From Pseudomonadota bacterium (GTDB taxonomy: Bacteria > Bdellovibrionota_B > Oligoflexia > Oligoflexales > CAIYRB01): a stretch of 64,000 bases of DNA. The notes under the pieces are model-generated. The model saw nothing but the letters and a program-made list of their open reading frames with translations, was not told the origin of the DNA and did no database searches. Below, piece after piece: positions 198 through 8,631 of the stretch. Made by a program: the position numbers and the translations under genes. Every line of letters begins with the position of its first letter. The first letter of the stretch is position 1. The stretch covers positions 1 to 64,000 of the forward strand of contig JANOTL010000188.1 of assembly GCA_031416315.1 (NCBI GenBank). The letters run 5' to 3'.

Positions 198-224
198 TAC
201 ATCATCCCGCCCATGCCGCCCATG
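198..224. repeat. Distal att core (displaced groEL 3' end, MGGMGGMM followed by TAG)
   Basis: Exact match to 6974-7000. On the minus strand it ends in TAG (197-199). Confidence 0.93.
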
Positions 225-346
225 GCGAGTGATGTAAGTGCTGCTTTGGTATCCAGGAGTATGGAGTAGTCTTTACAGGTAGTTAAACCAATATCTGACG
301 GGCTGGTCCGAGTGCTCGATGGGTGTGGTTGGGTATCAAAAGGCAT

Positions 347-372
347 GGAAATCGTCATCGTGTCGTCATCGT
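347..372. repeat. Putative integrase arm-type binding sites (TCGTCATCGT x2)
   Basis: GGAAATCGTCATCGT (347-361) is identical to 6901-6915. A second TCGTCATCGT is at 363-372. Confidence 0.7.
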
Positions 373-508
373 CCTATTCGGCGTCAAGGGGCGCGCATCG
401 CGATCCAGCTCGCGAAGTCGGGAAGCGGGAGAGAGCTCACTCGGCGCCGGAGCCCCGCCGGCAGCACCCATCCTCTACGCTCCTACGTGGTGTAGATTGA
501 CTGCGCAG

Positions 509-1108
509 CTATCGTGCTTGGCCGCCGCCACGCTTTGAGCGTCTATTCGACTTGATACCGGTATTTCCGCCAGAGATCTCGTGCAGCTCCTCCATCACTT
601 CTTCGCACCATGCGAGCCACCCTTCTTCATAAGTGATGCCGTATCTGAGCGTGAATCGCTGAAACTTTCGATTGGTCTGAAGCTGACGGACGTCTTTGAA
701 GTATTGAGCCTCGACCTTGCGATATTCCACCAACGTCGCTTCGTGCTCTAATCTTTGGCGTTCGAGATCCGCTATAAGTTTCCGCGGATCGCTCAAATGA
801 CCAACGAATAGCTTTACGAGTAGTGGCTCTCTCGATGGTCCAGACTCGGTCGGCGACTCGATCCACCGGCGCAGCTCATCGCGTCCGGAACTGGTGATGG
901 AATATAGCTTCCGGTCGGGCTTTCCTTCCTGGGGTTCAACCTCCATGGAGACCCAGCCTTGTTGCCGAACCCGTTCGAGTTCGCGGTAGATCTGCTGATG
1001 AGTCGCGTTCCAAAAGAACCCGATCGAGCCTTGAAACCCTTTTGTGAGGTCGTAACCCGTCTTGGGCGAGTTCGCCAGGCCTGCGAGCACCGCATAACAT
1101 AGTGACAT
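509..1108 (-). CDS. PadR-family (AphA-like) transcriptional regulator
   Basis: Motifs LAGLANSPKTGYDL, FFWNATHQQIYREL and KPDRKLYSITSSGRDELRRW, plus a C-terminal helical dimerisation domain. Confidence 0.92.
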   Translation of the reverse strand: MSLCYAVLAGLANSPKTGYDLTKGFQGSIGFFWNATHQQIYRELERVRQQGWVSMEVEPQEGKPDRKLYSITSSGRDELRRWIESPTESGPSREPLLVKLFVGHLSDPRKLIADLERQRLEHEATLVEYRKVEAQYFKDVRQLQTNRKFQRFTLRYGITYEEGWLAWCEEVMEELHEISGGNTGIKSNRRSKRGGGQAR

Positions 1109-1155
1109 AATGTGTCTCTCGTTCCATTTTTGACCCCGATGACGGCACCGGCATT

Positions 1156-1210
1156 TATGAAACTAGTTGCATATGCCGAGGAGTCTTGCTATATGCAACT
1201 TAGTGCATAT
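1156..1210. promoter_or_regulatory. Two AphA/PadR-type operator palindromes overlapping a sigma70-like promoter
   Basis: TATGAAACTAGTTGCATA (1156-1173) and ATATGCAACTTAGTGCATAT (1191-1210) fit (A)TATGCA-N6-TGCATA(T). Promoter candidate TTGCAT-N17-TATATG at 1167-1195 on +. Confidence 0.75.
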
Positions 1211-1249
1211 GCGCGACCGAATCAACTCCAAGGTGGGACGAAGGTGACC

Positions 1250-5267: not shown

Positions 5268-5555
5268 ATGGAAACCAAGGGAGTCACTTTTCTCGGAGAA
5301 AGATGGTCTGCCGGCACGGTCATGGCCGGTGCTACACTCGCGGGCGGCAGCGCGCTCTTTGACAACCGAATATGCGATAGATACCTAACATCAGCGGAGC
5401 TGGCCGCGTTTCTCGGTTTGTCGGAACACACGATCCGAGCGTGGCGGAAGCTTCGCTACATCACACCCGCGACATTTGGACGGTCCGTCAGGTGGCTTCT
5501 CAAGAGTGTGCTTGGGGAGCTTGCCAAACGGAGGCAATCCAATGCGAAGTCGTGA
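5268..5555 (+). CDS. Excisionase/HTH_17-type DNA-binding protein
   Basis: YLTSAELAAFLGLSEHTIRAWRK...FGRSVRW, immediately upstream of the integrase. Confidence 0.8.
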   Translation: METKGVTFLGERWSAGTVMAGATLAGGSALFDNRICDRYLTSAELAAFLGLSEHTIRAWRKLRYITPATFGRSVRWLLKSVLGELAKRRQSNAKS

Positions 5556-6830
5556 TGGAAACGCGACGCACTATCAGACCAAGTACGGATACTGGCACGT
5601 ACGCTCTTTGGTGACGATGGTGTCGTTCGCAACAAGAACTGTAAAACGAGGACGGAGCGTGATGCGCTTCTCAGCGCGATCCGCCGGCGCGACGAGCTTG
5701 ACTACTGGTTTCCCGCGGAAGCGGGAGCTGCATCGGGCCGCGACGCCGGGACGTTCAAGGGGCTCGCGGAACGGTGGCTAGAACACTCGGCGAAGGTGCG
5801 CGAGGTCTCGGAGTCATGCCTAGGCAACTACCGATGCCATCTCAAGCACCATATCCTGCCGGTCATCGGCGACCTCTACCTCAAAGATCTTGACCTGAAG
5901 TCCATCGAAAAGGTTGCAGCGGTCATCAAGACCAAGCAACCGCAGACTCGCTCGTATAGAGCAGTCCGCCGGAACCGGATGGAAGACGAGTTCTTCGAGG
6001 ATGATGAGCTGCTCTCGGCGGCGTATCGCAGGGAGATCCTGACGGTGGCGTGTATGGTGACGAAGTTCGGCGCAGAGCGAAATCTGCTGACGGTCAACCC
6101 GTTCCGTCAGTTCGCTCTACCCGAATGCCCGGAGCAGCCATACGACTACTGGCGGCTGAATGAAGAGGACGCCTTCCTGCAGTGGCTAGAAGACGGCGGT
6201 CATGTGATCAAGTGGGTCACAAAGCCGCATAGCGTCAAGGCCGGCAAGCCGGAGAAGTTCGAGAAACGGTTTCGCACCCGCAACGTCGAAGAGCTGTACG
6301 ACGTCGTGCTCTTTGCCCTGCGCTCCGGGCTCAGGAAAGGTGAGATAGGTGCCCTGACGGCCAGTGACGTGAACTTTTCCAAGAACTGCCTCGTAGTCCG
6401 ACGGGCCTATAGCGAGAAGGAGAAACGCGTCAAGAAGACCACCAAGCGCGTCGCGCGGACGAAATCCGAGCAGTACCTGCTGTTCACCACGAAAACCTGG
6501 GCAATCAAGAATTTCTCGAAGTATTGCGTGAAGGCGGGTGTCCGCGAGATCCACTTCCATGCCTTGAGGCATACGTGTCTGACGAACCTTGCCAACGGCT
6601 ACGGCATGGACTCGCCGCTACCGCTGCCCCAGGTGCAGAAGATCGCCGGCCACAAGGACATCGCGACGACGATGCGCTATGTCCACGTCGACGGCATCGA
6701 GAACACCGGCTCGCGTCAGTGGTCGCGGGAGAAGCGCAAAGAGCTGCGCCAGCAGCTCCAAGTGCCACCACCCCCAGCCCAATCGGCGCTAGTCCGGCGC
6801 CTACGGCTCGTCGGTTCCGAGGGCACCTAA
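5542..6830 (+). pseudogene. Tyrosine integrase with an N-terminal frameshift (~5604) and probable internal deletion
   Basis: Catalytic R (SGLRKGE), K (TTK), HALRH, AGH and Y (TMRY) are present. GGAGG-ATG 5542 opens MRSRDG...WHVR, which continues as LFGDDG... only after a frame change. Confidence 0.75.
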
Positions 6831-6839
6831 GAGCAAGAA

Positions 6840-6869
6840 ACCCGAACCAGCAGTGTCGCTGGTTCGGGT
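6840..6869. terminator. Hairpin between convergent integrase and groEL
   Basis: Perfect 12-bp stem ACCCGAACCAGC/GCTGGTTCGGGT. Confidence 0.65.
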
Positions 6870-6900
6870 CCTTGTCTTCCTCTTTGATTTACGTCGATCC

Positions 6901-6928
6901 GGAAATCGTCATCGTAAATCGTCATTGT
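6901..6928. repeat. Putative integrase arm-type binding sites (AAATCGTCATYGT x2)
   Basis: GGAAATCGTCATCGT followed by AAATCGTCATTGT, 45 bp inside the proximal att core. Confidence 0.7.
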
Positions 6929-6972
6929 GGACTCTTCGGCGGCGCTAAGCCACCGAAGCCACAAGCAGAACC

Positions 6973-8631
6973 TTACATCATCCCGCCCATGCCGCCCATG
7001 CCGCCCATACCCATGCCGCCGCCCGGGGGCATGTTGGAGCCTTGGACCTTATCTTCCGGCCGGTCGGCGATCATCGCCTCGGTCGTGAGGAGGAGGGCCG
7101 AGACGGAGGCCGCGTTGGTCAGCGCCGTGATCGTGACTTTCGTCGGATCGATGACGCCGGCCTTGTAGAGGTCCTCGTAGACCTCCGTCAGCGCGTTGAA
7201 GCCTTCGCCGCCTTTGGAGGCGCGGACTTTTTCGACCACGACCGCAGGCTCGACGCCGGCGTTCAGCGAGATCTGGCGCAGGGGCTCTTCGATCGCGCGA
7301 CGGATGATCGTGATGCCGAACTGTTGCTCCGGCGTGTCGGCCTTGAGGCCGTCGAGCACGTGCTGCGAACGGATGAAGGCCGTGCCGCCGCCCGGGACGA
7401 TGCCGCCTTCGACCGCGGCGCGAGTGGAGTTCAGGGCGTCTTCGACGCGGGCCTTCTTCTCTTTCATCTCGGTCTCGGTCGCAGCGCCGACCTTGATGAC
7501 CGCGACGCCGCCGACGAGCTTGGCCAAGCGCTCTTGCGCCTTCTCTTTGTCGTAATCGGAAGTGGTGTTCTCGATCTCGGCGCGGATCTGCTTCACGCGG
7601 GCTTGGATGTCGGCCGCGTTGCCCTTGCCGTCGACGATGGTCGTGTTGTCTTTGTCGATGGTGATGCGCTTGGCGAAGCCGAGGTCTTCCAGCGTCATCG
7701 TCTCGAGCTTCTGGCCGAGGTCTTCGGAGATGAGGTTGCCGCCGGTGAGGATGGCGATGTCCTGCATCATCGACTTCCTGCGGTCGCCGAAGCCCGGGGC
7801 TTTGACGGCGACGCATTTCAGCGTGCCGCGGAGGCGGTTGACGACGAGAGTGGCGAGCGCTTCGCCGTCGACGTCTTCGGCGACGATCACGAAGGGACGG
7901 CCGGTCTGCGCGATCTTCTCGAGGATCGGCAGGAGGTCCTTCATGTTCGAGATTTTTTTCTCGTGGATGAGGATGTAGGCGTCTTCCAGGACGGCGATCA
8001 TACGCTCGGCGTCGGTGACGAAGTACGGGCTGAGGTAGCCGCGGTCGAACTGCATGCCTTCGACGCACTCGAGGGTGGTCTCGAGGCCCTTGGCTTCGTC
8101 GACGGTGATGACGCCGTCGCGACCGACTTTGTCCATCGCATCGGCGAGGATCTTGCCGATCTCCGGGTCGTTGTTGGCGGAGATGGCGCCGACTTGCGCG
8201 ATCTCGTCACGGCTGGCGGTCGGACGGGAGATCTTGGTCAGCTCTTTCACGACGGCCTGGACGGCCTTGTCGATGCCCTTCTTGAGCTCCATCGGGTTGT
8301 GGCCGGCGGCCACGAGCTTGGAGCCTTCCCGGTAGATGGCCTGCGCGAGGACCGTGGCGGTCGGCGTGCCGTCGCCGGCGATGTCGGAGGTCTTGGAGGC
8401 GACCTCTTTGTCCATCTGCGCGCCCATGTTCTCGAACTTGTCCTCGAGCTCGATCTCTTTGGCGACGGAGACGCCGTCCTTGGTGATCGTCGGCGAGCCG
8501 TAGCTCTTCTCGATGACGACGTTACGGCCTTTGGGGCCGAGCGTGACTTTGACCGCGTCGGCGAGGACGTTGACGCCGGCAAGGATCTTGCGGCGGGATT
8601 CTTCACCGAAATTAATGACTTTACTGCTCAT
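6973..8631 (-). CDS. groEL: Chaperonin GroEL
   Basis: [24 protein letters not shown] and the GGM tail. Note atypical V74D and T90P. Confidence 0.98.
6974..7000. repeat. Proximal att core within the groEL 3' end
   Basis: Exact match to 198-224. groEL ends in TAA at 6973-6975. Confidence 0.93.

Follow-up and report, generated by a model that had tools for sequence, protein, structure and literature searches.

An integrated element behind groEL in an Oligoflexales-like bacterium, probably the deletion-reduced remnant of an integrative and conjugative element

The stretch of DNA analyzed here (the window, 64,000 nucleotides, positions 1 to 64,000 of contig JANOTL010000188.1 of assembly GCA_031416315.1) opens with an integrated element of ~6.8 kb, which lies directly behind a host groEL gene between two attachment (att) cores at 198-224 and 6974-7000. 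The source genome comprises 6.36 Mb in 226 contigs and is 93% complete, and the element sits at the start of its contig C188, with a GC content of 0.52-0.62 compared with 0.65 genome-wide. Comparisons were made with a set of 131 genomes of the class, in which L numbers denote loci, G numbers genomes and C numbers contigs. A preliminary description of this DNA had taken the element for a minimal satellite at groEL that supplies a specificity factor for its own origin of transfer (oriT) and borrows a relaxase and a type IV secretion system (T4SS) from a helper.

The integration site and the backbone of the element

The two 27-bp cores are exactly identical, as had been claimed, and their sequence occurs just twice across the whole assembly; when the repeat is extended to 227 and 7003, 29 of 30 positions agree. 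The distal core (198-224) is a copy of the sequence that encodes the GGM tail of GroEL, and the groEL-proximal core (6974-7000) supplies the last codons of groEL itself (6973-8631, minus strand, from the list of open reading frames, ORFs), with groES at 8667-8954. On the minus strand, the stop codon is TAA at 6973-6975 and TAG at 197-199, in keeping with the earlier proposal that insertion leaves GroEL intact and exchanges one stop for the other. This groEL is 79-90% identical to the groEL genes of relatives and 74% identical to a second copy in its own genome, which has a second groESL on contig C13. It also carries V74D and T90P, radical changes in columns that are invariant in 43 other groEL copies, and these could be consensus errors or real damage.

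Next to the distal core lies a putative recombination arm (225-382) that is 68-80% alike to the DNA after core copies, or to the arms of smaller units described below, in several relatives. It holds a GGAAATCGTCATCGT repeat at 347-361 that is shared with 6901-6928 at the other end of the element, where two direct arm-type repeats (6901-6928) follow a hairpin at 6840-6869 located after the integrase gene (6840-6928 as a whole, plus strand). A similar layout of hairpin and arm repeats is present at many groEL junctions of relatives. Outside the element, a self-complementary, terminator-like hairpin at 140-175 may belong to groEL as its native terminator or may mark where a further unit ends; it is 87-89% alike to hairpins close to groEL-core sites in G001 and G011. 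Since the contig extends only 197 bp past the distal core, an empty site could not be shown, and the empty groEL site that the preliminary description proposed to look for in related genomes did not turn up in clean form. The candidate for such an allele was G001, a genome of the same genus without an integrase match and with a matching hairpin near the groEL stop; we rejected it because element-type arm repeats lie between the hairpin and the groEL stop and because its contig ends ~300 bp from that stop.

Within the element, an oriT-like core at 4591-4656 (plus strand) contains an inverted repeat at 4628-4647, with arms 4628-4636 and 4639-4647, followed by TGCTTGC at 4649-4655. The core is 92.5% identical to that of L072, a locus with an ICE (integrative and conjugative element), and is conserved in six other loci, and TGCTTGC preceded by an inverted-repeat-like sequence lies upstream of mobC in all ten further loci checked. 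In two of the seven sequences one position pair in the arms is changed on both sides, a signal that is weak alone (23 of 500 shuffles reach it), and a substitution at 4641 in the repeat is found in this element's copy only. Folded as single-stranded DNA, 4570-4700 is no more stable than its shuffles (z = 1.26), and therefore the case for an oriT is built on conservation. TGCTTGC presumably resembles the nick site of pC221; a literature search for the motif found nothing. We consider the oriT-like site of the preliminary description credible, with position and conservation pointing to a function as oriT. A nick would be predicted within 4649-4656 or next to it.

Downstream of this site lies mobC (4806-5171, plus strand), which has an open frame and matches PF05713 and PF21983, so that the ribbon-helix-helix gene proposed earlier is confirmed as a member of the NikA/MobC family. 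Its product is identical to the MobC of L093 at 81 of 106 residues (76%), and a protein search with it, taken without genomic context, gave 20 matches among 26 candidates with identities of up to 81%.

The Pfam scan covered ten ORFs of the element, and none of them matched a relaxase, coupling-protein, Rep or capsid family, which agrees with the preliminary description. The closest intact module, L093, has the order oriT, lipoprotein-like ORF, small ORF, mobC, relaxase, spacer and regulator, and its relaxase (619 amino acids, aa) starts 3 bases after the mobC stop. The junction at the missing relaxase gene lies at 5172-5219 (plus strand), where the element follows L093 to the base before the relaxase start (~5175) and rejoins it after the relaxase stop. 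The stretch 5176-5222 is weak by itself, as 22 of 200 shuffles reach its alignment score. The adjoining 5220-5278 (plus strand) corresponds to the post-relaxase spacer and the opening codons of the ICE regulator gene, whose remainder is gone; it is 92% identical to L093 and 80% to L072 and ends in the regulator start. Because the DNA between mobC and the excisionase-like gene (xis) thus aligns to both flanks of the L093 relaxase gene, we conclude that the relaxase was deleted. The spacer at 5279-5360 aligned to none of five regulator-xis regions above chance, so the right end of the regulator deletion could not be placed. The distance from oriT to mobC is ~450 bp shorter than in L093. By alignment, then, the element lacks the relaxase, the regulator and the lipoprotein region, and homologous DNA persists on either side of where the relaxase would be.

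Among the 17 MobC homologues scored, 15 have a relaxase start at most 600 bp downstream, some of these relaxases being interrupted. The two exceptions are contig C21 of the element's own genome, where only relaxase residues 395-517 remain, and L080, where there is none; the count omits the element itself, L092 (whose contig ends inside mobC) and L081 (a weak match below the listing threshold, with no relaxase match on the locus). MobC and relaxase matches occur in the same 8 of the 131 genomes. The preliminary description had named, as the outcome that would speak against a satellite, a relaxase that always follows mobC in homologous elements, and together with the flanking scar this is largely what we see.

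The Xis-like ORF (5268-5555, plus strand) begins at the start codon of the regulator and matches PF12728 (HTH_17), which bears out the helix-turn-helix protein named earlier; over residues 30-94 it is 81.5% identical to the product of the gene before the integrase in L018. The tyrosine integrase gene that follows (5542-6830, plus strand) is recognized by a match to Pfam Phage_integrase and by translations, alignments and a tree, and it is broken. Its first codons, from 5542, are in another frame than the remainder, and alignments with three relatives place the frameshift, one missing base, near 5604-5609. A 57-bp in-frame deletion after 6446 removes 19 residues directly after the TTK motif, and these residues are present in L018, L019 and L023. 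Neither lesion was seen in the aligned relatives (three for the frameshift and three for the deletion). Thus, the earlier assignment to the tyrosine integrases stands as to family and fails as to an intact gene. In a tyrosine recombinase fold, lesions of this kind would be expected to abolish activity.

The rest of the element is cargo of ~3.8 kb, so that of the proposed minimal element the backbone parts are there and the near-absence of other genes is not. A PadR-family regulator (509-1108, minus strand; PF03551, PF10400) is divergent from a gene at 1112-2335 (plus strand), which is followed by a gene for an IspA/VC0807-like protein (2271-2957, plus strand; PF04279, with NF041646 slightly below the cut-off). 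The protein of 1112-2335 has 407 aa from a GTG, with a likely start at ATG 1250, and a CxxCH motif can be read near its C terminus; it had no match in Pfam, NCBIfam or PADLOC, and its best Atlas score of 0.81 is a lead only. A DUF6036/AbiEii-like nucleotidyltransferase (3012-3584, minus strand; PF19502 at E = 3e-12, PF08843 below the cut-off) is a putative type IV toxin of a toxin-antitoxin (TA) pair. The gene that overlaps its start (3581-4330, minus strand) would encode the antitoxin; this partner had no family match in Pfam, NCBIfam or PADLOC. The same gene pair is present in G002 and G035, with partners 74-77% identical, and 3012-4330 is probably a type IV TA-like module. PADLOC on five cargo proteins gave one weak AbiEii match and left four without a match, and an Rfam scan of positions 1-9200 found nothing at E ≤ 1.

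Related elements at groEL

Integrase matches at E ≤ 1e-30 occur in 28 of the 131 class genomes, the element's own included, and all ten loci with an integrase at least 58% identical have a core copy just downstream. In L018, L019 and L023 the order is TraC-like, TraH-like, TraG-like, mobC, PF03432 relaxase, regulator, xis and int; the TraH match is below the cut-off, and the TraG-like label is given by position and recall, without a family match. The relaxase of these relatives is of the MOB_P type. In G025 (contig C19), core copies lie at 99-126 and 62184-62214, with the ICE module before the right core. Two metagenome matches to the oriT also have the ICE layout.

In a tree of 25 integrase sequences, the element's integrase is sister to that of L018 (support 100/95). 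The element's mobC and oriT are closest to L093 and L072 and its int and xis to L018, and because of these different closest relatives the parent was likely a modular mosaic. The groEL-integrase clade (L018, L020, L042, L110, L111, L128, L161) is paired with at least three mobilization modules: a MOB_P relaxase with MobC, an FtsK-like ATPase or a coupling protein together with a gene of weak replication-relaxation likeness, and a Rep_trans-like gene. A regulator-like gene of 105-125 aa (L018:9340-9675; L047:2882-3199) precedes xis in the ICEs and, in several of the units described next, sits immediately inside the distal att; it has no Pfam or NCBIfam match. For the compact backbone of oriT, mobC, xis and int, no second copy turned up in the 131 genomes.

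We also identified, across 11 genomes, 28 integrase-less units bounded by core copies, of which 27 measure 1-4 kb; the loci were selected for several core copies and part of their ORFs was scanned, so these counts are no measure of prevalence. Nineteen of the 28 have a Pfam match to a TA-type family (AbiE, HigB, HipA, Fic, TumE, PemK, Gp49, TacA, DUF6036), of which Gp49 and DUF6036 are families that we take to be of TA type. The largest stack, on contig C1 of G061 (L133:2443-18572 and L145:1572-5472), has 11 core copies and 10 units over ~20 kb behind groEL. Seven of its units have a TA-type Pfam match and two more have weak PADLOC AbiEii matches, and in the eight units compared, the ends are 77-95% alike and the cargo is different. 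No integrase of this clade was found in the G061 genome. Shorter integrase-less stacks at the groEL core are seen in L125/L126 (G089:C5), L127 (G059:C87), L047, L048, L049, L129, L130, L132, L143 and L144, and at L127 the HigBA and AbiE units resemble units of L133 at 68-72%. Decay of ICEs to cis-mobilizable elements (CIMEs) and tandem accretion at att sites are treated in the consulted part of a review (PMC5704250). The stacked units would fit such decay and accretion, with TA pairs as the genes likely to survive deletion.

The preliminary description looked to a MOB_P relaxase elsewhere in the genome. In the 93%-complete assembly no intact one was found: searches with Relaxase, P-loop_TraG, T4SS-DNA_transf and TrbI gave 0 matches, the relaxases of relatives matched only the fragment on C21, and queries with the TraC-, TraH- and TraG-like proteins gave nothing. 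The C21 fragment belongs to a second reduced element (L083:5647-11121), in which mobC is followed by relaxase residues 395-517 only. Its other parts are an AbiE pair, an oriT-like motif, a regulator, xis and an integrase gene that belongs to another clade and has an open frame. On contig C95 of the same genome, 42457-43017 matches a replication-relaxation-like protein at 31%, with an integrase-like match ~1 kb away, and is possibly part of another element.

Copies of this oriT type without an adjacent relaxase are also found in other genomes. In G089, L106:10330-12228 combines the oriT with a spacer motif like the element's, xis and an integrase of another clade whose frame is open over 412 codons, and L105:3798-3863 is a further relaxase-less copy; the same genome has the cognate ICE L072. 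On contig C422 of G011, L080 has two tandem mobC genes before its relaxase (10575-11446); apart from these, an oriT-mobC at 1705-2254 has a degenerate motif and lacks a relaxase. A shared origin of the element with this relaxase-less mobC of L080 is unsupported, as the alignment score of their oriT-mobC spacers is reached by 148 of 200 shuffles.

Origin of the element

We conclude, with a probability of roughly 70%, that the element is the deletion-reduced remnant of an ICE that targeted groEL in an Oligoflexales-like bacterium. We regard it as a remnant rather than as a new kind of satellite because the relaxase and mating-pore genes present in its close relatives are missing and the integrase is broken. 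A parent ICE that brought a spare copy of the GroEL tail would have recombined this copy with the chromosome, giving the 27-bp duplication and an intact GroEL. Deletions may then have taken out the genes for the mating pore, the lipoprotein stretch that lay between oriT and mobC, the relaxase in full and almost the entire regulator. The integrase would have been hit twice, leaving a remnant unable to excise or transfer by itself, which the TA-like pair likely keeps in place. Renewed movement would probably require an incoming relative to supply integrase, relaxase and mating pore, that is, CIME-like mobilization in cis or in trans. The element's anatomy, its lesions and the homologous flanks of the missing relaxase are observations; the order of events, the loss of integrase activity and the retention by a TA pair are the probable parts of this account.

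Several observations weigh against it. The loss of the relaxase is nearly gene-exact, as streamlining would also give, and mobC, the oriT core, the arms and xis appear intact. The terminal branch of the integrase is short (0.10), so the lesions in it could be recent and could postdate the loss of the relaxase. Four of the seven copies of the oriT type (this element, the second copy of L080, L105 and L106) are without an adjacent relaxase, and in G089 the open integrase of L106 sits in the same genome as the cognate ICE L072. The V74D and T90P changes in groEL hint at local consensus errors. Finally, a helper may be unassembled, since the assembly is 93% complete and in 226 contigs.

Most of these points bear on the explanation that survives best next to a remnant, namely, a streamlined mobilizable element that lost relaxase and regulator early and spread its oriT-mobC-xis-int backbone by means of the relaxase and mating pore of a helper ICE before reaching this site, the integrase lesions being late or unreal. 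A clean removal of the relaxase that spared mobC and oriT, the short integrase branch, the compact oriT-mobC without relaxase in L080 and the other relaxase-less copies, above all L106 beside its cognate ICE, all favor it, and MGIVchHai6 with its MobIM offers a precedent for the mechanism (PMC7449626, consulted part). However, searches found no other element sharing these junctions; the L080 spacer does not align, and the motif of the L080 MobC is degenerate; the integrase is broken, and the genome yielded no helper. Every part of the backbone is moreover homologous to an ICE, while most of the integrated elements termed iOriTs are unrelated to their helpers beyond the oriT (bioRxiv 10.64898/2026.01.13.699239, consulted part). 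We therefore consider a streamlined origin unlikely for this element. Of the satellite first proposed, what stands is an integrated element that could move only with a borrowed relaxase and T4SS, and what does not stand is one built for that purpose. The proposal still carries some weight, since this oriT type recurs in copies that lack a relaxase (the second copy of L080, L105, L106). Given also the near gene-exact loss of the relaxase, the open mobC and the short integrase branch, the remnant may have passed through a period of being carried by a helper.

A second alternative is that the assembly misleads, either through errors in the consensus or because excised and integrated forms were collapsed into one, and that the real element is larger or intact. 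The assembly is of metagenome type with 226 contigs, the contig starts 197 bp from the distal core, and the two odd groEL substitutions would fit as well. As a proxy for frameshifts, we used the 57 loci of the window's own genome (62 kb) matched by proteins of relatives; only one, groEL (from 2 of 44 queries), showed a neighboring match in another frame, and four had a stop, which argues against widespread errors. Base-calling errors do not typically produce several separate deletions flanked by homologous DNA either, or a deletion of 57 bp that keeps the frame, and we regard an artefact as quite improbable. A phage satellite of the type of the phage-inducible chromosomal islands (PICIs) and Staphylococcus aureus pathogenicity islands (SaPIs), which the shared groEL target and the presence of int and xis might suggest, is scarcely credible, as Pfam and NCBIfam found no primase, replicase, terminase or capsid family among the element's ORFs, the relatives have the layout of conjugative ICEs, and viral contigs searched with MobC gave just four weak partial matches.

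A broader picture may be drawn only tentatively, and we hold it to be doubtful. In Oligoflexia, groEL could anchor a hierarchy of parasites in which ICEs supply integrase, relaxase and pore, hitchers such as this element and L106 borrow transfer, and TA cassettes of 1-4 kb with conserved ends borrow the integrase and form an integron-like array, as in G061. In any case, the element is a readable intermediate between full groEL-targeting ICEs and the stacked, integrase-less units that bear TA genes. Should these units prove excisable in trans, the site would allow a test of the way in which TA modules convert decayed ICEs to arrays of cassettes, and it would offer a groEL-specific integrase for a little-studied group.

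Comparison with known systems

By itself, the element is most likely an ordinary decaying ICE, and the satellite reading also has known precedents. If it moves at all, it would do so in the manner of a CIME or of a hitcher of the MGIVchHai6 or iOriT type. Among the top titles of a literature search, with subscription papers outside its scope, no description of this family in Oligoflexales or Bdellovibrionota was found. The sources compared below are represented by the parts of them that were consulted.

ICEs have relaxase and mating-pair genes on the element, as in L018, L019 and L023, and an intact integrase between their att sites; the element lacks the former, and in this assembly the frameshift and the 57-bp deletion interrupt the latter. 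The closest likeness is to CIMEs (PMC5704250), which have also lost genes for transfer and integration, keep both att ends at the 3′ end of a gene and have relatives stacked beside them. Here, relative to related ICEs, the integrase is broken and the relaxase and regulator have left scars, while both ends are kept, with identical 27-bp cores and conserved arm regions. Unlike those CIMEs, the element retains an oriT, xis, a mobC with an open frame and an integrase gene that is broken yet almost complete in length, and its target is groEL in Oligoflexales-like bacteria, a gene that goes unmentioned in the consulted part of PMC5704250.

The island MGIVchHai6 represents a family of islands at trmE that are mobilized by IncC plasmids (PMC7449626), and it likewise has int, xis, an oriT and its own oriT-recognition factor and borrows relaxase and T4SS. 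In that family, the layout is conserved, transfer has been shown and MobIM is 27% identical to the factor of the helper (PMC7449626), whereas the element studied here is a single copy with a MobC 76% identical to that of an ICE, a relaxase scar and a broken integrase. Its factor is also of the MobC/NikA and not of the MobI family, and its relatives use a PF03432 relaxase.

Like the iOriTs (bioRxiv 10.64898/2026.01.13.699239), the element is integrated and att-bounded, and it has a conserved oriT-like core and no relaxase or mating-pair genes. Most iOriTs form families of their own, whereas mobC, spacer, xis and int of this element are homologous to parts of ICEs, which makes it a subset of an ICE backbone like the minority ascribed to recent loss of the relaxase (bioRxiv 10.64898/2026.01.13.699239). 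L106 is a better candidate for an iOriT than this element.

Staphylococcal PICIs such as SeCISE48 integrate at the 3′ end of groEL and leave the gene unaltered, as the element does (PMC8125051). They are packaged by phages, and the element has neither such packaging genes nor the primase or replicase of a PICI; the shared target is likely convergent. Finally, in the oriT mimics of the pWBG749 family, the relaxase also acts in trans and a ribbon-helix-helix factor, SmpO, sets the specificity for oriT (PMC8136818), but these are plasmids and SmpO is encoded by the conjugative helper.

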